Below are positions 9,746-50,408 of a stretch of 64,000 bases of DNA, in pieces. The DNA comes from Candidatus Moraniibacteriota bacterium (GTDB lineage: Bacteria; Patescibacteriota; Minisyncoccia; Moranbacterales; GWC2-37-73). Position 1 is the first letter of the stretch; every line of letters starts with the position of its first letter. The notes below the pieces were generated by a model. The model did no database searches, was not told the DNA's origin, and saw only the letters and a list, made by a program, of their open reading frames with translations. The translations under genes were made by a program, and so were the position numbers. The stretch lies in assembly GCA_035390125.1 (NCBI GenBank), contig DAOOTD010000002.1, forward strand, positions 41,908 through 105,907. Direction: 5' to 3'.

Positions 9746-12700
9746 TTATTCTTTTTTTTCAAAAATTGATTCTGGCATTAAAGAAAATATTATCCCCATC
9801 GAGAACACCAGAACGATTGAAGTTACTGTTATTCTTAGCAAAAACAACATCTGCTCTGGCAGGTTTGTTATGAGGCTCGCAAAAATACCTGCTTTTTGGG
9901 GACTTTTCATAAACGTTATAGGGTCTTTTGTCACTTCTATAACAAACTCCTGATTAACATAGATGTCTTTATTTGAACTTAGAGGAGAGATGCCCCACTT
10001 ATCTTTAAGCTCTTTGCGCAAAGCATTGAGACCCTCCCTCTCCGCTCTTTCTAGTTTTGCTGTTCTGACTTTATATCCCACCAAATAGCTGTCCTTAGCT
10101 TCTTTTTTAACTGTAAATTCGAATGTGGAAGAATCTCCTGTAGAGGAAATTGTAATATCACCATCATCATTTCCATATGAAGCATCTCCATCTAATACCT
10201 GGACTCCATCAAGATACCATTCAAAAACTGCTTTTTGCCCAAAACTGTTTCCTGCAGTAGCTGTTAAAGAAACCCTCGTGTCTTCTTTAGCTTCCATAAC
10301 TGTATTACTAAAAGAGTCAACTTCATTGTTGTCTACGGTGTAGTATGTGCCCATAAATTTTCTCATAGCTCCTGAGGCACTGGATATCTGAGCATAGGAT
10401 CCGACAATAACAAATCTTTGGGTAATTTCTTGCCTGACGCCATTTTGGTTTGTTCCCCTAGCAACAACATTCACGGATTCTCCCGGATTACCTATAATAG
10501 GAAAGATTAGACCATTAAAACCCTGGCAGAGAGTTGAAAGACATTCCATTGATTGGCCGTTAACTTTCCAGGAATAGCCGCTTCCTCCATCTACCTCGAC
10601 CGCCACTAATTTGTTTTGTGTCACGGGACAAATTGCTTCTCCTTGTCCATTACATATTTGACTTCCTATACTAATCCCTGATGCGGAATAGCTTATCTCT
10701 CTTACTTTTATTGTTTCCGTTTGATTTCTAACCTTAACGATAACCTGCCCTTGGCTTGATTGGCCAGAGTTATTGTCCGTGGTTTTTACTGTAATCCTTA
10801 GATAAAATATGTCGCCCTCTATATCTAATGTGAGCGGGAAGCTTATTTTGCTTTTACCTAAACCGCTTAAAGATCCTATTTTCACGTCCTGTCCGCCCGT
10901 GCTTGATTCAGTTGGCGGAGAAGTAAATGCCTCCACTTTCCACTCATAATAAATGTCTTTCAAATCACCCGAGTTTTTTGACATAGCCTGAACCGTCAGG
11001 GTGTCGCTGTTTAAACCCTCTGGGTCATTCAGGGGATTTGTAGGCGTGGCAGAAAGTTTTGTTTCAAAAGCATATGAGACTCCGCCGGTTGCATCACTGC
11101 TAAGCGGATCCACTAAGTTTTCTTCTAGGCATCTATCTAAATCAAAATCTGTAGTCAATATTCCTTTATTGTTTTCAGGGTCTTTATAAAAAGCTGTCGT
11201 TGCTGTTCCATTAGTTCCTCCGTCTGTCATTTCTTTCCCCACTATGTCCTTTAATTCATCACACTTGCCTTTTGAAAATGCCCACATAATCATATTCTTT
11301 GAATCATTGTGTGGTCCCGCTAGTTGGCTTTCGCCCTCAACAACCACCCCGATTTCATCGCCATCAGTATATGTCCAATTAAATTTTTTAGCTCCCAATC
11401 CAATTACAGTAGCTTCATCTGCTTTTCCTTTAAAATTTTCTCCAAAATAAAAATTTTTTTCATTAGTTTTAAATTGGCCATCCCCGGGCTTAAAATTTTC
11501 GTCCGGATCATAAGGAAATAGGTGTTTGCATAAATTATCTTCCTCCCCCAACGCCGGTCCAAAGGAACAACTTGGTTCAAGATCTGGATTTCCTGTTACC
11601 TCAGAATTAGAATCTTCTACAAACACCCCGCTAATGGTTCCGTCTGACTTTACTCCATTTATCAGGCCCTGCGTCAGATAAGAACAATTTTCATGTTCTG
11701 AACTATAGAGCACTTCATCTAAAATTCCTGGTGGAGGTGCAAGTAGACCAATGTTAGTGTTGGGCTTTCCCAATGAAGAACAAAACGCGCCTTCACTTCT
11801 AACTATAGTCGCTCTAATATTATCAGGCGCAGTTTTATTGTTATCTATCATATTAAAATTCCCGCTTGCCGGCATGCATATCGGTGTTCCTCCATTTTTA
11901 CACGACAAATATGCATGAAACAGTTTATAGTCCTCACTTTTAGTTGTGCAATTAAATACCTGTTTCATTCCGGCTTCTCCAGTTGAGCTTGCAATACTTT
12001 TAACCATGCAGCCACTAAAATTCATGTCATTATGTTTCAGTTCCCAGCATGCATTTGCATCATAAAAAGGCGGTATAGTGTTGGGCGGACTTGTGTTTGT
12101 TGGGTCACAGACCGGCTCTGTTCCTGTAAATGCTGGGTCCAGCACCTCGCAGTTCATTGTTCGGTCTTCTACGCAAGCTGGCACCGGATAGTCATCTGGG
12201 CATGGGGTCTTGAAAATTGGTTCCGTTTTTCTTAATTCATAAATAAGTCCGCTTACTGGTTCCTGTACATAGCAATTTTCTGCTTCATACTTATTGCCGC
12301 TTTCTCTTTTCCAGGTTTTAATCCATCCATCATCATCTTCGACTGAGGGCACCGCCTCTATTCCAGCTTCCGCGGAGGTGTCTCCCTCGGCACTATTTTG
12401 GCCGGCATATCTTAGGGCGGCTAACTTCCAATCGTTAGGCGTTATGACATTATCGTTATCCAAATCACACGAGTCTCCATCGGCTCCTCCGTCCTTATCC
12501 CACCACTCGTCTGTTAAATCACAGTCTTTATTCTTTAAATACCATGTATAATAAAGATTATCACCACTAAATCCTGCCACCACTGCTTCGGCAGTTGCGG
12601 AAGCTCCAGTTTGAGGAACACCTCCTGGGAACATGACTCTTATTTCTACCTTGGGACCCTCTTTTTTGCCTTCAGCGGTTTGTTGCGCTATGGTAATCTC

Positions 12701-40856: not shown

Positions 40857-40937
40857 GGGGATATGGTGGAATTGGTATACACACACGTTTGAGGGGCGTG
40901 ACCGAAAGGTGTGAGGGTTCGAGTCCCTCTATCCCCA
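40857..40937 (+). tRNA. tRNA-Leu (anticodon GAG), type II
   Basis: Acceptor ggggata/tatcccc, same D-arm as the other Leu genes, anticodon loop ttGAGgg, T-arm gagggttcgagtccctc. Confidence 0.85.
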
Positions 40938-40946
40938 CGTGTTCAA

Positions 40947-41025
40947 AAGGATGTTTAGCTCAGTTGGCTAGAGCACTTCTCTTACAAAGAAGGGGTCACT
41001 GGTTCGAGTCCAGTAACATCCACCA
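40947..41025 (+). tRNA. tRNA-Val (anticodon UAC), CCA encoded
   Basis: Acceptor ggatgtt/aacatcc + a + cca. Anticodon stem-loop cttct-ctTACaa-agaag. Confidence 0.85.
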
Positions 41026-41040
41026 TGCAAAAAAGATAGA

Positions 41041-41113
41041 GCCGAAATAGCTCAGCGGTAGAGCGAAGGACTGAAAATCCTTGCGTCGGCAGTTCAACTC
41101 TGCCTTTCGGCAC
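41041..41113 (+). tRNA. tRNA-Phe (anticodon GAA)
   Basis: Anticodon stem-loop aagga-ctGAAaa-tcctt. T-arm ggcagttcaactctgcc. Confidence 0.85.
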
Positions 41114-41141
41114 ATTTTAAAAATCAAAGATTGAGCTAAGA

Positions 41142-41213
41142 GGGACCATAGCTCAGCGGTAGAGCAGGCGACTCATAATCGCTTGGTCATAGGTTCGAAT
41201 CCTATTGGTCCCA
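41142..41213 (+). tRNA. tRNA-Met (anticodon CAU)
   Basis: Anticodon stem-loop ggcga-ctCATaa-tcgct. Initiator versus elongator not resolved. Confidence 0.8.
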
Positions 41214-41228
41214 CAAGAATTTAAAAAT

Positions 41229-41300
41229 GCGGGTATCGTATAGTGGCTATTATACGTCCTTGCCAAGGATGAGACGGCAGTTCGATTCTGCTTACCCGCT
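41229..41300 (+). tRNA. tRNA-Gly (anticodon GCC)
   Basis: Anticodon stem-loop cgtcc-ttGCCaa-ggatg. The 3' end overlaps the stop of the recombinase gene. Confidence 0.85.
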
Positions 41301-42899
41301 CAGAAGTTCAAAAACGGCCTTAGATTGGGCTGTTTTTGTTTTATCTAAGGCAAAATTAGTCAGTTCTAACCTTGGACATTCTGCCTTTATGGTTTCCAAT
41401 CCTTTTTCAATGAGTTGGTATTGTTTTCTTAGTGTGATATCTAGCACGCCATCCTTGAGGGTGAAATCTGATCCCAAAGCCCGTAAAATGTTGGTTTTCT
41501 CGGTATAATCACCAACATTAAAATTATGTTTTGCATATACCGCAAACTTGAATGTTTTTTCGGTCAGTTCTAACCATTCATCGGCTCGCTGGTTTATGTC
41601 ATCTAAAGATTGTTGAATCTTGTCTTTTTCTTTCAGTAGGGTCGCTTTTCTTTCCTTGAATTCGTCATCGCCAATTAAATCCTTGTTGGCATTTTCGGGT
41701 GAGATGTAGATATCTAACAACTTATCAATCCTATCTTGGCATTTCTTCAATGCTTTTTGTTGGTTTTCAATCATTATGTTCCTATTATCAACTTCGAGTT
41801 CGTTATCTCGCCTTAAGATTTTCAAAGCATAATCCAAAAAACTTTTAGGTATAGTGATTTTATCCAACTTATCTGCAATCTGCTTGTTGATGTCGTTGTA
41901 GGTAATGGATTTTTGTTTGCAATTAACATTCAACTTCTTTCTAGTGCAGTTATGATAGATGAATGTTCGGACAACATTTTCGGTTTTTATATGCTTCAGT
42001 TTTAGTTGGGTAGTAATATGACATCCGCACTCACCGCAACGGATAGTTCCTCGATAGGGAAGAATTTTATGTTTTGTTTGTGGCTTAGTTTTATTTCCCA
42101 AAAGTCCTTGAACATAATCAAATTCAGCTTCGGTTATCATCGGTGTGTGATTTCCTTCATAAACCTTACCAGTCCATTCATATTTTCCACAATAAAAAGG
42201 ATTGGTAAAAATATCGTATCCATGGCTAGCGTGCAGTTTTATTTCTTGCCCCTTGCACATTCTTCGCAAACCCCATTCATTGTTGGCAATCTCGATAATT
42301 TTTGAAACAGAATAGTCGCCAGTTAACATCAAGTCCCACATCTTACGAACAATGGGGAATTTTACTTCATCTACAAAAATCTGTTTTTTACCTTGGTCTG
42401 TTCCTTTGTCATTTTTATATCCTATCGGTGCACGACCAGGTCTCCAGCCTTGCTCTGCCTTATTCAACAGTCCTCGTCGGACATCTTTTCCTAAATCAAT
42501 AACATATTGGTTCGCCATTCCAAATTCAACACTCATCATTATCACATTGTCTACGGTTTTGTATTCTCTGCCGACTGTTTGGATGGACTGGATGAGTCCT
42601 TGTTGAAGCAACCACATTATCTCACCACCATCAACGGGATTTCTTGCTAGACGATTTAACTTCCAGCATATAATTCCATCTGCCTTGCCTTGTTTAATAG
42701 CAGACAGCATTTTGTTGAATTGTTCCCGACCTGGCTTTTTCGCTGATTTGCTCTCTTGAAAAACACCGACAATTTTAACATCGAGATGGCGTGCTAATTT
42801 TTCCAGTTCTTTTTTCTGGCTTTCAATAGATTGCGTTTGACGATCTTCCGCTTCGGTACTTTTGCGAAGATACATCAGATATTTTTGTTTTGTTTCCAT
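41292..42899 (-). CDS. large serine recombinase (phage-integrase type)
   Basis: N-terminal resolvase catalytic domain (YLRKSTEAEDRQTQSIESQ with the nucleophilic Ser), recombinase domain, zinc-ribbon CGECGCH...C and a C-terminal coiled-coil. The stop overlaps the tRNA-Gly 3' end. Confidence 0.85.
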   Translation of the reverse strand: METKQKYLMYLRKSTEAEDRQTQSIESQKKELEKLARHLDVKIVGVFQESKSAKKPGREQFNKMLSAIKQGKADGIICWKLNRLARNPVDGGEIMWLLQQGLIQSIQTVGREYKTVDNVIMMSVEFGMANQYVIDLGKDVRRGLLNKAEQGWRPGRAPIGYKNDKGTDQGKKQIFVDEVKFPIVRKMWDLMLTGDYSVSKIIEIANNEWGLRRMCKGQEIKLHASHGYDIFTNPFYCGKYEWTGKVYEGNHTPMITEAEFDYVQGLLGNKTKPQTKHKILPYRGTIRCGECGCHITTQLKLKHIKTENVVRTFIYHNCTRKKLNVNCKQKSITYNDINKQIADKLDKITIPKSFLDYALKILRRDNELEVDNRNIMIENQQKALKKCQDRIDKLLDIYISPENANKDLIGDDEFKERKATLLKEKDKIQQSLDDINQRADEWLELTEKTFKFAVYAKHNFNVGDYTEKTNILRALGSDFTLKDGVLDITLRKQYQLIEKGLETIKAECPRLELTNFALDKTKTAQSKAVFELLSG

Positions 42900-44043: not shown

Positions 44044-44844
44044 TTACCTATAAGATAGCCATGCTTTATCGCTGTCAATTTTAAATTTAAATTTTTTATT
44101 AACATCATGTGCTGATAACAATCTCTGCAACTCTTTTATTGTTCCCTCAATTTTAAGTTTCTTGTAATTTTTTTTCAAATATTCATCAGCTTCATCCGAT
44201 GCATTTTTTTTGGTAAATCTCTTTATTTTTTCAAATAAATATTCCAAAGTTCGTGCTGTTCCAATAGGATTACAAAAAGATTTTAATAATTGATACTTGG
44301 CTGTTTCAGCGTTACCAACTTCAATATTTTTCTTATCAACCTTTAAATAACCGATCCCATTTTTTTCAAATGTGGCAACTTTTATTTTACTTGTTTTTTC
44401 CTTCAATTTTTCAATTTTATTGTTTCCTATTCGATAACTGGAATATTCTAATATTTTATTCAAGCTTTCTTTGAATTTACCAGCCTCGTTTTTATTTGCC
44501 TTAAACAATAATGGATGCGTGGATTTACAAATAATGTTAAATAGTATTTTCTTGTTTTTCTTGCATGAATAATAAAGCAATATATTATGAAGTAGTTTTT
44601 GTCTTGAGTTGAAATAATTTGTCTTTAAAGATTCAGCCATATAATTGAGTGTAGATATATGGCCATATAAATCTTTTTTTACACCGCATTCATTTAAAAA
44701 ATCGCCCATTTTTATGTGAGATTTTAAACTTTCTATGGCATTTATTTTTTTAGCAATAAGTTCCAATGACTGCTCATTTAATATACAGCCTTCTTTTTTA
44801 AGGGAGCTTACTGTTATTGCTAATTCAATTTCATTTTTAAACAT
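44044..44844 (-). CDS. hypothetical protein (Lys-rich)
   Basis: 266-aa ORF with no recognisable domain. Confidence 0.45.
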   Translation of the reverse strand: MFKNEIELAITVSSLKKEGCILNEQSLELIAKKINAIESLKSHIKMGDFLNECGVKKDLYGHISTLNYMAESLKTNYFNSRQKLLHNILLYYSCKKNKKILFNIICKSTHPLLFKANKNEAGKFKESLNKILEYSSYRIGNNKIEKLKEKTSKIKVATFEKNGIGYLKVDKKNIEVGNAETAKYQLLKSFCNPIGTARTLEYLFEKIKRFTKKNASDEADEYLKKNYKKLKIEGTIKELQRLLSAHDVNKKFKFKIDSDKAWLSYR

Positions 44845-44924
44845 ATATTTATTATTGATATTTTCTCACTAGATAGGCTTAAAAGCAAGATAAATGTTTA
44901 CTTTTAGCCATTTTTATATTACAT

Positions 44925-45078
44925 TGTAAGTGGTACCATACTCATATAGACACTGAGAGTAATCTCAGTAATTTTGCTTCATCACGCCTTTAAGCGGGCG
45001 GCTCGGCGCACATGATGGGGCATTTCGGTGTCTTTTGAGTGTGGTACCCGTCGGGTCGTCCACTCAAGCGGAACTTCT
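44925..45078 (+). ncRNA. GC-rich structured element; candidate ncRNA or cis-acting site
   Basis: A 13-bp long-range helix (GGTACCATACTCA at 44928 pairs with TGAGTGTGGTACC at 45035) encloses local hairpins. GC is about 50 percent versus about 28 percent around it. Ends at a strong terminator. Confidence 0.3.
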
Positions 45079-45112
45079 CGACGACTTAATTATTAAGTCG
45101 TTTTTTGTTTTT
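45079..45112 (+). terminator. rho-independent terminator
   Basis: acgacttaattattaagtcgt followed by T6. Confidence 0.75.
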
Positions 45113-45138
45113 AAAAAACAAATTACACAATAAAAAAT

Positions 45139-45489
45139 ATGGGTGTAATTGAATCAATCGGAGCTAACCGAGCAAGAATCATTTTCGATGATTTTTGTGT
45201 TAGATTATTTTTAAAATATAAAGGAAACTATTGCTCTGATGTTAGAATATGGAAATTATCAAAATCCAATATACTTTTTGGCATGTTTAATAGTAAAAAT
45301 TTATACTGGGCTGTTTGTGATGAGGCGGCCAATTCTTTACACGGTTGGTTTTATAAAGAAGGCGATCTACTTAAGTCATTGGCGCATAGAATAGAGCAAT
45401 GCTCTAATGAGAATGAACTGAAAAGATTGTGTCTTAATCTGGAAAATATAATTGAAAAAGGAATTCCATTAGATATAGGAGAATTTTAA
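45139..45489 (+). CDS. hypothetical protein
   Basis: 116-aa ORF, Cys-containing, no motif recognised. Confidence 0.45.
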   Translation: MGVIESIGANRARIIFDDFCVRLFLKYKGNYCSDVRIWKLSKSNILFGMFNSKNLYWAVCDEAANSLHGWFYKEGDLLKSLAHRIEQCSNENELKRLCLNLENIIEKGIPLDIGEF

Positions 45490-45700: not shown

Positions 45701-46130
45701 GGTTTTATCTAAAACGAATAATCGTGTTTGGTCGCGGATTCTAGCTATGCAAGATATAACAAAAAACGACCCTCTCTTTTTTGCGAAGGTCTTTTTTTAT
45801 TCCTCTTTTGTCACCAAAACACTCTCTTTTGGCTTTAAATAGCCAAAGATATAAAGTTATATGGCTGACCAGCCAAGACATCCTCTAGGGATGAAATAAA
45901 GCCTCCAGGGGCAGTGAGAGTGTCTCGCCAAATGGGCTTTTTGGCTAAAATAAGGCAAAGATTTCTTAATTAAACGATAAAAGGTTTTAAATAGCGGAAA
46001 TTATCGTGTTTGGTCGATTAATTTGTGTAGTATGATAACTGTTTAAAGAATTAATTATTATATAAGTTTATGGGTTAAAAAGCTATATATTGGCATAAGG
46101 CAATTTAAGTGATAAGCTAAAAATACAAAT

Positions 46131-47045
46131 ATGGCATTATTTAGCATACAAGGCGAGAAAACTAAAAAGATTTTATCTAAAAGCTTAGATTTAGAAAAAA
46201 AACTTCAAAAATTATTCGAGAATAATCTTGAAGACGTTTTGAATATCACTTTTTTAGCCCATGAATATTCCACAAGTTTTGGCGGAAGAATTGATACATT
46301 GGGAATAGATAAAAACGGATCTCCCGCAATAATAGAATATAAAAAGAACCAAAATGATAATGTAATTAATCAAGGACTCTCCTATTTGCGATGGCTTTTA
46401 GATCATAAGGCTGATTTTGAAATATTATGCAGAAATAATAAAGTTGCAGTTGAAATTGATTGGGATTCGCCAAGGGTTATCTGTATAGCAGAAAACTATA
46501 ATAAATTTGATATTGACACTGCGGATATTTTGCCTATAAATATTGAATTGCTAAGATATAGGATCTATGAAAACGATATTTTATCTCTAGACATAGAAAA
46601 TTATCAAAAAGTAAGAATTTCAACTTCTGGCATATTAAAGAAAGCAAGAAATCAAAAAGAGAAGCAGAATGTTCTTCAGAAAAATTATTTATTAGAAGAT
46701 CATCTGAAAAATGCGCAAAAGGAAATAAAATTACTTTTTTATAAGTTGCGAGAAAAGATCACAGCACTTGATGAAAATATTATTGAAGAGGCTAAGGCAA
46801 AGTATATCGCCTATAAAACTTCAACTAATTTTGTTGATATTGTGGTGCTTGGCAATAGTTTAAAAATATTTTTAAATGTGAAAAGTGGAAAACTTATTGA
46901 TAAAAATTCAATAGCCAGAGACTTAACTAAGCCAAAATCCGTTGGTCATTGGGGGAATGGTGATTATGAGGTAAAATTGCAAAGCGAAAATGATTTAGAA
47001 AAAGTTTTTGACCTAATAAAACAAAGTTATGGTTATAATAAATAA
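46131..47045 (+). CDS. PD-(D/E)xK nuclease-fold protein (NucS/DUF91-like core) with C-terminal extension
   Basis: GRIDTLGIDKNGSPAIIEYKKN...NVINQGLSYLRWL carries the D...D...ExK...Q..Y signature. Overlaps the downstream gene by 17 nt. Confidence 0.6.
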   Translation: MALFSIQGEKTKKILSKSLDLEKKLQKLFENNLEDVLNITFLAHEYSTSFGGRIDTLGIDKNGSPAIIEYKKNQNDNVINQGLSYLRWLLDHKADFEILCRNNKVAVEIDWDSPRVICIAENYNKFDIDTADILPINIELLRYRIYENDILSLDIENYQKVRISTSGILKKARNQKEKQNVLQKNYLLEDHLKNAQKEIKLLFYKLREKITALDENIIEEAKAKYIAYKTSTNFVDIVVLGNSLKIFLNVKSGKLIDKNSIARDLTKPKSVGHWGNGDYEVKLQSENDLEKVFDLIKQSYGYNK

Positions 47046-48348
47046 AACTATGTACCAAGTAAAAATACCTAAGATATTATTTTTAGCACTAGGGACAGCA
47101 AGATTTTATTATAAAGGTTATTATAATACAAATGATCTCGCTGGAATTGCAAATAAATATGCCGAACATCTCGTTCGTTTAAGATCAGACAAAAAAGATT
47201 ATAAGTATTTGGATGATACTAATTTTGGTGGATTAAGAGGAAATTTTTCAACACTTCTTACGTGGAAAGGGTTTGTTAAAAGGGGAAATGCCATAGTAAG
47301 TAGATATTATATTGGCAGGGATAAAAGATTGGCTAATGCAGTATGTAATGGTGAAATTATACTAAATGAGAGTAATATGACTGCGTATACTACAAATGAA
47401 AAATTAAAAGAACTTTTAGAATTAGAAGCATGGCTTTTCACCGTAAAGGAAACACAGGCACATATAAAAGTTATGTTAGGAAAAGATAAGAGCATACCTC
47501 TTTCTAGAGATAACGATAATTTCAAAAAAGTATCTGTCGTAAGGAGTGCAAATGGTCAATATTTTATAAGATCGTTAGTTAACAATTTTATTGATTCAAA
47601 AAATAAAGTTCTGGAGTACAGTATAGTTAATTTTTGGGAAGGAAAAAAGTTAAAGAAGAAAAATCTTCATCCATTAATAGTTATTCCTACGAAAGATACT
47701 CCTTGGAGTAAAATATTTGCAATAAAAATGGAAGATTTGATTGATAATAAACCTTTGACATTATTGGTTGATTTAGAAAAAGAAATTTGTTTTGATACGG
47801 ACAATAATAAATACAAGCTATATTCTCTAAGGGAAGCCGTTGACGAATTTACAACTGGAGATGAAAATATACCTCAAAGGCTTTCATATTCCTGGGAAAA
47901 AATAAAAGAGGCTCACTGTGATAAAGAAGCTGATTTTTCTGAAATCAAAGAAGATGAATTTATAATTTTTCTAGAGAAATTCCTCAAGTGGCAAAAAGAA
48001 TTTGAAGTTGGAGAAAAGAAAGTTGTGGGTGTAAATGTATCGAGCTCTGGTGGTCCCGATGTTCACTTAACATTTTCGGGTGGCACAGCCCAAAAATTAG
48101 AACTTGAACATAACTGGAAAAGCTACTTAGATCACAGGCATCACGAAAGTAATGCATGGGTAGATACATGGCTTTTTGCAGAAGAAGAATGGAATCCTAA
48201 AAGAATATTAAGTTTATACAAGACACATAGAAAAACCAATGGTCAAAGAATTCCTAATGTATTTTTATGTTTAGAAAGAGGAGAACGCAAGTGCTATGAA
48301 GCAAATTGGGATGAAGAAACATTTACAGAAATACCTTTAAAATTTTAG
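47029..48348 (+). CDS. hypothetical 439-aa protein, candidate second endonuclease subunit / specificity partner
   Basis: No family recognised. Possible D...ExK-like patch (PTKD...LLVDLEKE). Start overlaps the PD-(D/E)xK gene and the 3' end overlaps the convergent methyltransferase by 12 nt. Confidence 0.45.
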   Translation: MVIINKTMYQVKIPKILFLALGTARFYYKGYYNTNDLAGIANKYAEHLVRLRSDKKDYKYLDDTNFGGLRGNFSTLLTWKGFVKRGNAIVSRYYIGRDKRLANAVCNGEIILNESNMTAYTTNEKLKELLELEAWLFTVKETQAHIKVMLGKDKSIPLSRDNDNFKKVSVVRSANGQYFIRSLVNNFIDSKNKVLEYSIVNFWEGKKLKKKNLHPLIVIPTKDTPWSKIFAIKMEDLIDNKPLTLLVDLEKEICFDTDNNKYKLYSLREAVDEFTTGDENIPQRLSYSWEKIKEAHCDKEADFSEIKEDEFIIFLEKFLKWQKEFEVGEKKVVGVNVSSSGGPDVHLTFSGGTAQKLELEHNWKSYLDHRHHESNAWVDTWLFAEEEWNPKRILSLYKTHRKTNGQRIPNVFLCLERGERKCYEANWDEETFTEIPLKF

Positions 48349-49128
48349 TTTACTTAATTGATTTTTATTTTTTAACACAACTATTTTCGAGGTTGTGTTA
48401 TTTTTTTTCGCTCGATTTTTCATTATTTCAAAATATTCATTGTCATTCTCTATACTTATACTGTTCCTTTTTAATTGATCCGCTGAAGATTGAAGCGTTC
48501 CACTGCCGGCAAAACAATCTAAAACCCAGTCATTTTCATTAGTAAATATTTTTAGTAAGTGCTCTAAAACCTTGGCTGGTTTTTGAGTGGGATGTTTCGT
48601 TCTTTCATTGCCCATGCATATCGGAGTTTCTACAAAATCAGCCTTGATGTGATTATGCATTTCATTTTGCTTTGTAAAATTGAAAGTATAATCTATTTTT
48701 TTTTCATTAAATCCTTTCGTTGCCCATAAAATTGCCTCACATGAAGATAAAAAACCTGTTTTTCTAATTTGGGGGGCTGGATTAGTTTTGTGCCAAATAA
48801 TAGTAGCATGGTGTTTAAAATCATGCTTTTCATATATTCTTTTTATATCACTAATATATTCTAATTTGCTAAAAATTAACAAATTTCCAGATTCTTTAAC
48901 TTTATTTTTTGTATTCTTTATCCATTTATCAGTAAATAATAGATATTCATCATCAGAAAAATAATCCCACTTTCCAAAATCTGATGATCTAGCCTTTCTT
49001 CCTTTTAATATCTTGGTATTTTTATTAGCAGTATTGTAAGGAGGATCAACAATTACGGCATCGAATTTTTTATTGATTTTTGGCAAAATATCCAAAGCAT
49101 CTCCGAATATTAAATAATGTGAATTCAT
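48337..49128 (-). CDS. DNA methyltransferase, beta-class amino-MTase (N6A or N4C)
   Basis: Motif IV DPPY (AVIVDPPYNT) precedes motif I FxGxG (LDCFAGSGTL). Confidence 0.85.
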   Translation of the reverse strand: MNSHYLIFGDALDILPKINKKFDAVIVDPPYNTANKNTKILKGRKARSSDFGKWDYFSDDEYLLFTDKWIKNTKNKVKESGNLLIFSKLEYISDIKRIYEKHDFKHHATIIWHKTNPAPQIRKTGFLSSCEAILWATKGFNEKKIDYTFNFTKQNEMHNHIKADFVETPICMGNERTKHPTQKPAKVLEHLLKIFTNENDWVLDCFAGSGTLQSSADQLKRNSISIENDNEYFEIMKNRAKKNNTTSKIVVLKNKNQLSKLKF

Positions 49129-49133
49129 AAAGT

Positions 49134-49898
49134 TTATTTTTTTAGTCGTTTAAGTGAATCAATATAATAACCCTTGTCAACTTCAGAACCTATAAAATTT
49201 CTTTTTAATCTTTTCGCCACAACCGCAGTAGTCCCTGAACCCATAAAAGGATCGAATATAATATCATTTTCATTTGAAGTTGCTAGTATTATTTTCTCTA
49301 AAAGCCATTCTGGTTTTTGTGTAGGATGTATTTTTTTTCCTCCCGCAGTTTTTCCTCTTGTCAAAACAGCTTCTCCATACCACATGCACCTCATTTGCTT
49401 TCCGTGATTAATCTTTTTCATCTCACCATAATTAAATGTATTTTTTTTAGTTTTTCTTGCCCATATGAAATTTTCATGATCAGCTACAAATCTCGTACAA
49501 GACAAATTTGGTGTAGCATCAGATTTGTGCCATATTATTTCATTTAAAGGCTCAAGCCCTATTTTTTTTAATAAGTATCCTGTTAAATAAATATTATGAT
49601 AAGTTCCTGCAACCCATATTGCTCCTTCATTTTTTAATATTCTATAACATTCTTGTAGCCATTTCTTTGTAAATTCTTCGAATTCAATATCTCCAAAATT
49701 ATCCCAATGCCCTTTATTTGTGCTTAAATCAGAACCGCCAGATTTTATGAATTTTATCTTAAAATTGCTTTTGCTTAGGTTATAGGGAGGATCTGCAAAT
49801 ATCAAGTCAATAGAGTTGCTTTTAATTTTTTTCATTAATTTTAAGCAATCTTCATTGTAGATTTTATTTATTTTCAGTTTTTTATCTGTAAAAATCAT
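49134..49898 (-). CDS. DNA methyltransferase, beta-class amino-MTase (N6A or N4C), second copy
   Basis: IFADPPYNL then FDPFMGSGTTAVVA. Lies 5 nt upstream of the other MTase. Confidence 0.85.
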   Translation of the reverse strand: MIFTDKKLKINKIYNEDCLKLMKKIKSNSIDLIFADPPYNLSKSNFKIKFIKSGGSDLSTNKGHWDNFGDIEFEEFTKKWLQECYRILKNEGAIWVAGTYHNIYLTGYLLKKIGLEPLNEIIWHKSDATPNLSCTRFVADHENFIWARKTKKNTFNYGEMKKINHGKQMRCMWYGEAVLTRGKTAGGKKIHPTQKPEWLLEKIILATSNENDIIFDPFMGSGTTAVVAKRLKRNFIGSEVDKGYYIDSLKRLKK

Positions 49899-50198
49899 CC
49901 TTATTTTTTAATTTATAGATTATAGGTTAATTATAACCTTAAAAGAGAGAAAAATACACCCCCAGGGCAATTTATTAAAAATATGCGAATTCTGTGTTTA
50001 AAATGTACCTAAATTGCTTTGACAAAGCACTTATTCCATGCTATAGTTTTTTCTAAAGACGAGGCATAGCTTTAAAGCTTTTAGGTATATCTCGATCGCT
50101 CTTATCTGAGTAGCGGCATTGGAACGGGCCGTGAAGAACGGTATAAGAAGAAAGTGGTCGAGCCTTCTTGTGTAATTAAGACATAATAAGAGAGCCAT

Positions 50199-50408
50199 AT
50201 GCCAAAGAAGCAAGATGCTTCTGGTATGCGAGGATATCGAACTCGAAACGAAGATGGAGAATTGCGCGATAAGCGTGATGATACCCACATTGGGACCATT
50301 GAGAAGCAGTACGATATAGATCTCGAAGTCAGAAGTGATATGCACTTAGGAACATATCTTAAGGAGCATAAAATAAAATCCCTTAACGACCTAATTAATG
50401 GTCAATAA
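50199..50408 (+). CDS. hypothetical small charged protein
   Basis: 69-aa ORF after a GC-rich leader. Flanked by a 14-bp inverted repeat (50059 / 50426). Confidence 0.3.
   Translation: MPKKQDASGMRGYRTRNEDGELRDKRDDTHIGTIEKQYDIDLEVRSDMHLGTYLKEHKIKSLNDLINGQ

Follow-up and report, generated by a model that had tools for sequence, protein, structure and literature searches.

In the ZTP/pfl and fluoride/crcB riboswitches, which are 5′ leaders, a long-range pseudoknot closes the aptamer, and its 3′ strand competes with a terminator or anti-terminator. The regulated ORF follows shortly after an intrinsic terminator. The CI RNA of P4 and the c4 RNAs of P1 and P7 belong to untranslated operon leaders of integrative mobile elements that carry a self-complementary leader segment. 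In P4 immunity, the CI RNA pairs with a nearby complementary leader sequence, which promotes premature transcription termination. At lambda pR′, a short leader transcript (6S) ends at the strong terminator tR′, and the downstream genes need read-through with Q, while the put RNAs of HK022 make the polymerase terminator-resistant. In the attenuation systems of pT181, pIP501 and pCF10 (Anti-Q), the leader of a mobile replicon adopts mutually exclusive terminator and anti-terminator folds. The IS110 bridge RNA and the IS1111 seekRNA are structured non-coding RNAs of ~180 nt beside the recombinase gene of a mobile element.

In this study, we analyzed a structured GC-rich element in a 64,000-nt stretch of DNA from a Candidatus Moraniibacteriota bacterium, the whole of which is referred to as the window. 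CPR bacteria (Patescibacteria) are mostly uncultured, and to our knowledge almost nothing is known of their gene regulation or mobile elements. The element shares with the ZTP/pfl and fluoride/crcB leaders the pseudoknot closure, a 3′ strand that is predicted to compete and the position of the terminator. In contrast, it has no Rfam match, its 13-bp pseudoknot is unusually long and abuts the closing helix P1 without a linker, and unrelated mobile-element cargo lies downstream instead of a coherent metabolic regulon. Like the CI and c4 RNAs, it would lead an operon of an integrative element and contains a self-complementary segment; however, it does not match Rfam C4, the segment pairs inside its own folded unit to give a pseudoknot, there is no sign of RNase P processing, and the host belongs to the CPR and not to the enterobacteria. 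Similar to the lambda arrangement, a short leader transcript would end at a strong terminator and downstream genes would need read-through, whereas covarying structure is not a feature of the lambda 6S transcript, and no Q-like protein was identified here. Unlike the put RNAs, the element RNA forms the terminator instead. As in the plasmid systems, the predicted terminator and anti-terminator folds would be mutually exclusive, but no countertranscript is evident, and the balance would be tipped by a loop within the RNA itself. Finally, compared with integron attI/attC, the recombinase here is of the serine type and not a tyrosine integrase, no repeated sites follow each cassette, and the replacement of the first gene is flanked by ordinary conserved sequence. 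Based on the observations below, we favor with moderate confidence a cis-acting, pseudoknot-gated transcription attenuator that leads the accessory-gene operon of a recombinase-bearing integrative element of Moranbacteria.

The element occupies positions 44932–45106 on the + strand (~175 nt). The window is AT-rich throughout (~33% GC), and the GC content is 0.51–0.53 in 44950–45099 compared with 0.24–0.28 in the flanks, which bears out the enrichment noted in an earlier, sequence-only reading of this DNA. The fold energy is −73.4 kcal/mol (z = −6.2), and none of 200 shuffles was as stable. The Rfam search proposed in that reading returned no family for the element at either gathering or permissive thresholds. 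Against the 4227 covariance models of Rfam 15, which include riboswitches, ribozymes, C4, 6S, tmRNA and SRP, the element stayed below every gathering threshold; tRNAs alone passed in the whole-window scan, and a sensitive scan of 44700–45300 gave only chance-level matches (E ≥ 2, ≤ 20 bits against gathering scores of 47–55). Similarly, blastn of the element against phage and plasmid collections gave no match. In the literature on non-coding RNAs of CPR and Moranbacteria and on serine-recombinase-associated RNAs, which was covered incompletely, the motif is not described. We rate the element as a new RNA family. Its general kind, a terminator-coupled structured leader, is known; what is new is the architecture and the link to large-serine-recombinase elements of the CPR.

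To collect homologues, a degenerate pattern was derived from the most conserved core, and it matched 51 metagenome loci and 39 genome loci. About 22 of the former and 20 of the latter lay in high-GC contigs and were discarded as chance matches. The true homologues comprise ~29 metagenome and ~19 genome loci (~48), all of low GC. The pattern matched nothing in viral contigs, and the sole match of a 20-mer scan of viral contigs (L002), inside a GC-rich phage coding region, was rejected as chance. The genome matches are mostly labeled as Candidatus Moraniibacteriota or Parcubacteria group MAGs, and a few as Bdellovibrionales, Micavibrio or Saccharibacteria.

Alignment A4 comprises 41 distinct sequences, and the structure scored in it consists of helices P1, P2 and P4, the pseudoknot and the terminator (52 pairs, 2102 cells). 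Standard pairs occur in 97.4% of these cells compared with 33–47% when the partners are slid by 1–3 columns, and 28 of the 52 pairs show changes on both sides. None of 500 shuffles attained the observed pairing values. Both-side changes are found in 9/13 pairs of P1, 7/10 of P2, 6/8 of P4 and 5/8 of the terminator. The sequence-only reading had asked for a comparison with other copies and had named a lack of helix covariation among homologues, together with a missing transcript, as the result that would speak against it; the ~48 homologous loci share a covarying structure, with covariation present across the 41 distinct homologues. Compensatory changes on one strand, as expected for a structured non-coding RNA in general, were thus observed. 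An RNAalifold hairpin at columns 101–110 and local hairpins in the P4 loop were dropped in favor of P2 and the pseudoknot. For a tertiary or alternative pairing UCAAG:CUUGA, inspection by eye found most sequences compatible with several exceptions, and no claim is made for it.

The non-Watson-Crick cells are distributed asymmetrically, with 292 G-U against 11 A-C. Moreover, covariance model R1 scores the + strand at 147–192 bits and the reverse strand at 27 bits or less. Together, these two results indicate an RNA structure of the + strand and not an inverted repeat of duplex DNA. They bear directly on a DNA-level explanation, in which the 13-bp inverted repeat would bound an inverton, or the locus would serve as an att or oriT site or as an origin of single-strand replication. 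Such a site would fit the position of the repeat beside a recombinase gene and upstream of variable, often membrane or secreted genes, as in invertons, and also the recombination junctions right after the T-run. However, selection on duplex DNA would give no bias toward G-T over A-C mismatches (292 and 11 on the + strand), four further helices and the pseudoknot covary under a strongly strand-specific model, and no inverted copy was found, as all ~50 copies share one orientation relative to the terminator and ORF. In addition, a pair of related loci described below (L029 and L064) places the RNA inside the element and not at its end. A single-stranded DNA form of the + strand is formally conceivable. 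The strand asymmetry largely rules out the readings at the DNA level, and we consider this explanation extremely unlikely. The oriT or packaging site raised in the sequence-only reading is disfavored by the G-U excess, the covariance scores, the nested helices and the pseudoknot.

A promoter-like region at 44896–44925 (+) precedes the RNA and contains a −10-like TATATT/TATTAC box at 44915–44922. In relatives, a conserved extended −10-like box of the TGnTAnnnT type lies 6–9 nt 5′ of P1. The promoter is thus predicted from sequence, and the transcription start presumably lies at or just before P1. Conservation between loci spans from ~35 nt 5′ of P1 to the U-run, so that a discrete promoter-to-terminator block is conserved while both flanks change.

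The closing helix P1 pairs 44932–44944 (GGTACCATACTCA, or GGUACCAUACUCA as RNA) with 45036–45048 (TGAGTGTGGTACC, or UGAGUGUGGUACC as RNA), and 99.8% of its cells are paired across the 41 sequences. The 13-bp helix with one U-G pair had been recognized in the sequence-only reading, which placed its strands at 44928 and 45035, 1–4 nt from the coordinates found here. P2 stacks inside P1 and pairs 44948–44957 (AGACACUGAG) with 45024–45033; 87% of its cells pair, in an alignment that is imperfect in P2. A local hairpin proposed earlier at CTGAGAGTAATCTCAG holds in part, but in relatives its CUGAG arm pairs with CUCGG as helix P2. The variable P3 hairpin and its linker (44958–44976), placed from single-sequence folds and alignment A4, are optional; P3 is missing from short copies, among them L037, L043, L061 and L062, and from the mini-variants described below. 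P4 pairs 44977–44984 (CUUCAUCA) with 45013–45020 (UGAUGGGG), with 99.1% of cells paired. Its apical loop contains a conserved segment at 44985–44995 (CGCCUUUAAGC), whose A4 columns are invariant or near-invariant and whose AG is invariant in all 41 sequences. A short ATG ORF inside the RNA is not conserved in A4, and a leader peptide was rejected as a candidate.

A further part of the P4 loop forms the pseudoknot. Positions 44996–45008 (GGGCGGCUCGGCG) are fully complementary to 45049–45061 (CGUCGGGUCGUCC), which begins directly after P1, and all 13 of 13 pairs form in the window. The local hairpin that had been suggested here does not stand: its segment, GCGGGCGGCTCGGCGC or GCGGGCGGCUCGGCGC, lies in the P4 apical loop and supplies the 5′ strand of this pseudoknot. 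Across the 41 sequences, 99.8% of the pseudoknot cells pair, and all 13 pairs form in 39 of them. The exceptions are L062, with one mismatch, and L009, with a 1-nt deletion in each strand that appears as gaps in the column check but leaves 12/12 pairs in register. Much of this helix was fixed by the search pattern. Columns 131–135 were free of it, and pair 85:133 in this region is AU in 17 sequences, GU in 15 and GC in 9, with no mismatch. Compensatory indels or substitutions occur in L009, L011, L061b and L069b. The strongest support comes from copies that were found without the pattern. L011, found via its protein, carries GGGCAGUCGAGU:GCUCGGCUGUCC, with 12/12 positions paired and four compensatory changes, and the two mini-variants carry GGGCGGUUCUG:CAGAACCGCCU and GGGCGGUCUG:CAGACCGUCC, with a matched indel. 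From helix lengths, we estimate that the P4-stacked pseudoknot could lie beside the P2-stacked P1.

The RNA ends in an intrinsic terminator at 45081–45106 (+). At the DNA level, it reads ACGACTTAA-TTA-TTAAGTCGT (45081–45101) followed by T6 (45101–45106); in the RNA, the arms ACGACUUAA and UUAAGUCGU form a stem of 9–10 bp (45081–45089/45093–45101) with U6 behind it. A terminator scan confirmed the terminator and U-run that had been noticed ahead of the gene at 45139. Across the 41 sequences, 99.7% of the terminator cells pair, including U-G pairs. Two candidate anti-terminator helices share the 3′ partner region 45077–45086, namely P5 (CGUCGGG:CUCGACG) and AT (GGUCGUC:GACGACU). Their 5′ strands (45049–45055 and 45054–45060, respectively) overlap the 3′ strand of the pseudoknot, and both helices use the 5′ half of the terminator stem. 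P5 is pairable in 96.7% of cells, with seven C-A mismatches, and AT in every cell (100%) of the 41 sequences. Neither helix shows both-side changes, since the 5′ strand does not vary, and this is a point against the attenuator reading. Energy calculations gave −22 kcal/mol for the pseudoknot duplex. When the pseudoknot strand is sequestered in the calculation, the complete 10-bp terminator forms in the 3′ domain (−9.9); when it is free, P5 (−13.8) forms before the 3′ half of the terminator is transcribed, and a 7-bp AU-rich stem remains.

Based on this geometry, we infer transcription of the unit, its 3′ end, read-through, a switch between two states and the direction of regulation as follows. 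The element's own promoter would drive rightward transcription of a structured RNA of ~175 nt, in which the P1–P2 stack is topped by a junction bearing the optional P3 and the P4 hairpin. Thirteen nucleotides of the P4 loop would then pair with the 13 nt after P1. With the pseudoknot formed, the full 10-bp terminator would be free, transcription would stop at the U-run, and a short stable RNA would result. If the pseudoknot is prevented, P5 or AT might form instead, which would weaken the terminator and allow read-through into the adjacent ORF. The freed A/U-rich stretch might also expose the start codon, and the leader probably also gates start-codon access into the cargo genes. Candidate triggers are a small ligand, a host or element protein, and simple leaky read-through.

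The same logic may extend to shorter copies. The mini-variant consists of P1, P2, P4, the pseudoknot and a U-run, without P3 and without a separate terminator. Two were found, L069:6750–6860 (+) and L061:~11150–11255 (+), and both lie directly 5′ of a co-oriented large serine recombinase ORF, in its 5′ UTR. Both loci also bear a full-size RNA in the opposite direction. With the exception of this mini-variant ahead of the recombinase, each locus yields one RNA copy under the covariance model. In the divergent copy L011 and in both mini-variants (L061b and L069b), a separate terminator is absent and the U-run directly follows the 3′ strand of the pseudoknot. In these copies, the pseudoknot helix itself would be the terminator stem, and the mini form would gate the recombinase gene. 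The full-size and mini arrangements would therefore share one logic, in which a formed pseudoknot means termination.

Regarding the genomic setting, the genes left of the RNA are all on the − strand and comprise a large serine recombinase (41292–42899; Resolvase, Recombinase and Zn_ribbon_recom domains), three small ORFs and a divergent gene for a 266-aa protein (44044–44844). The latter combines a helical domain at the N-terminus with an OmpR/PhoB-like winged helix at the C-terminus; E-values of the predicted C-terminal fold against OmpR/PhoB-type DNA-binding domains are weak, and the top matches are consistent. It is probably a DNA-binding regulator of the element, as the fold prediction suggests. 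A homologous RNA lies divergently upstream of every full-length 266-aa homologue, and compensatory changes in P1 are visible there; a protein scan of metagenome contigs with the 266-aa family found nothing. Among the homologous loci, a divergent gene is always present upstream of the RNA, and in most loci the spacing between its start and P1 is similar. This gene encodes either the recombinase itself or a diverse protein that appears DNA-binding-like by eye from C-terminal sequence features. Scans with Pfam and PHROGs gave almost no annotation for the upstream divergent proteins and the first cargo proteins. The link to the large serine recombinase, like the pseudoknot and the restriction to the CPR, had no place in the sequence-only reading.

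Seventeen loci extend 4 kb or more upstream of the RNA; in 15 of them, a large serine recombinase occurs no further than ~5.3 kb away, and it is the only consistently nearby protein. Moreover, it is directly divergent from the RNA in some loci and immediately downstream of the mini-variants. An RNA cofactor of the recombinase, loosely comparable to the IS110 bridge RNA or IS1111 seekRNA and affecting directionality, target choice or recombinase expression through binding to the enzyme, would account for this proximity. However, the variable parts of the RNA are covarying stems and its unpaired loops are conserved and not element-specific, which is the opposite of programmable guide loops. Large serine recombinases recognize att sites through protein domains, and two loci with 4.5–7 kb of flank contain no recombinase. 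The enzyme also differs from the DEDD type of IS110 and IS1111, and a cofactor role would leave the terminator, the ORF next to it and the switch logic without explanation. In addition, this RNA carries a terminator and leads into ORFs, unlike the bridge RNA and seekRNA. We consider such a role very unlikely. A retron was rightly dismissed in the sequence-only reading, as no reverse transcriptase (RVT) domain was found in the 10 neighboring proteins or in the conserved module of related loci.

Returning to the attenuator reading, the genes right of the RNA bear on what it would control. On the + strand lie a 116-aa ORF (45139–45489), a 69-aa ORF, a DUF5655/NucS-like protein and a 439-aa protein, followed by two DNA methyltransferases on the − strand. 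The first of these, which is the first co-oriented ORF downstream of the RNA, belongs to no known family and occupies a slot that is variable in homologous loci. An intrinsic terminator thus lies directly 5′ of a co-oriented ORF, as in an attenuator. In most loci, this ORF starts 0–8 nt past the U-run, which leaves no room for a separate promoter. In the window, the ATG at 45139 lies 32 nt past the U-run, further than in most loci, which is a point against the attenuator reading. The first downstream ORFs are mutually unrelated; many encode small membrane or secreted-like proteins, and others GIY-YIG or nuclease-like proteins. L029 and L064 agree at 95% identity upstream, across the RNA and again from the second gene on, but differ completely in the first ORF, with the left junction shortly past the ATG, and this pattern indicates that the first gene is a swappable slot and that the RNA is internal to the element. 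Measured from the RNA core, the replacement between them spans +124 to ~+620/+660. The sequence-only reading proposed a leader for the 45139 gene, but a role specific to that gene is not supported, because homologues of the 116-aa protein occur without the RNA (L003, L004 and L006) and the RNA precedes unrelated genes elsewhere. The broader suggestion of a small regulatory RNA or riboswitch-like leader is the best fit, given the strand-specific structure, the promoter-like box, the terminator and the nearby ORF start.

The unrelated downstream genes also weigh against the attenuator reading, since they do not form a coherent regulon from which an effector could be inferred. They give no clue to a ligand, which is unusual for a metabolite riboswitch. 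Moreover, the discrete promoter-to-terminator block also fits a self-contained trans-acting RNA. Such a stand-alone small RNA, released at the U-run, could serve in immunity or copy control like the CI RNA of satellite phage P4; its conserved P4 loop would target other transcripts or a protein, and any influence on the ORF behind it would be a by-product. The unit is sharply bounded, and near-identical RNAs occur between flanks that are unrelated on both sides (L027, L029, L033 and L038). The terminator is strong and the fold very stable, the sequences of the loop and pseudoknot hardly vary from one element to another, as for recognition of a common partner, and one genome can hold two copies (L071 and L073). 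In contrast, neither pseudoknot strand recurs in the 64-kb window, which offers no local trans target, and the best complement of the loop lies in the same RNA, 40 nt downstream, and covaries with it. Furthermore, ORFs that start 0–8 nt past the U-run must be transcribed through the RNA gene, and immunity RNAs are expected to differ between elements, whereas these are nearly invariant. We therefore regard a trans-acting RNA as unlikely and retain the cis-acting attenuator as the preferred reading.

An extension of the attenuator reading is a true sensor, namely a riboswitch that responds to a small molecule, or else an RNA with the large serine recombinase or a host factor as its binding partner. 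It would switch the cargo and recombinase units together as the 13-bp pseudoknot forms or opens, with the pseudoknot either acting as a terminator or unmasking one. We hold this proposal to be quite unlikely. If it were true, it would represent a new class of regulatory RNA specific to recombinase-borne elements of ultrasmall symbiotic bacteria. If the element is a switch of any kind, it would add a candidate to the orphan riboswitches and provide a handle on how the expression of cargo and recombinase is controlled. The family is well supported and has an unusual architecture, a 13-bp pseudoknot that abuts a 13-bp closing helix. It is tied to elements with large serine recombinases, enzymes of current interest in genome engineering, and the RNA sits exactly at the site of variable cargo exchange. 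The alignment and covariance model suffice for the design of termination assays and structure probing without culture of the host.

Several further features of the RNA family and of the island were observed. One Parcubacteria MAG (JBAYWF01) contains two different RNA copies, on contigs 1 (L073) and 9 (L071), so that one genome can host more than one such element. Several RNA-bearing MAGs are labeled as Bdellovibrionales or Micavibrio (L064, L077, L082, L087, L088 and L101), and their loci are of low GC. The recombinase of L087 shares 65–80% nucleotide identity with those of Moraniibacteriota and Parcubacteria MAGs (L031, L065 and L071), and the labels point to mislabeled bins or to transfer of the element. 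Five copies (L009, L021, L089, L093 and L098) contain an insert of 17–21 nt between the pseudoknot and the terminator. This insert consists of two extra GUGAAC(AU) units, compared with a single GCGGAAC in the window, and could be a product of slippage or a repeated protein-binding motif.

The island starts at tRNA-Gly(GCC) (41229–41301), the last gene of a five-tRNA cluster at 40857–41301. At its stop codon, the recombinase ORF shares the final 10 nt of this tRNA, which suggests that the element integrated at the 3′ end of the tRNA. The right-hand end presumably lies near 49900–50400, and the sole variant contig (L104) ends inside the tRNA cluster. The cargo at 46131–49898 includes two adjacent N6/N4 DNA methyltransferases on the − strand (48337–49128 and 49134–49898), which face the DUF5655/NucS-like protein of 304 aa and the unannotated 439-aa protein. 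This cargo looks like a restriction-modification module. The 116-aa protein has 13 homologue clusters (59–100% identity, all of 115–116 aa), and homologues occur in quite different Moranbacteria neighborhoods (L003, L004, L005 and L006). Its gene looks like a small gene that moves on its own.

Finally, a 36-nt direct repeat (45699–45734/45981–46016, 78% identical) brackets a non-coding segment of 282 bp. About 255 nt of this segment (45763–46017) are ~82% conserved in L007 and also conserved in L021, and in both of these loci the conserved stretch follows the variable first genes downstream of the RNA. At its start, the segment has the terminator that belongs to the ORF before it, and it may contain another structured RNA, with the closing helix ACACUCUC...GAGAGUGU (fold z = −2.5, three sequences).
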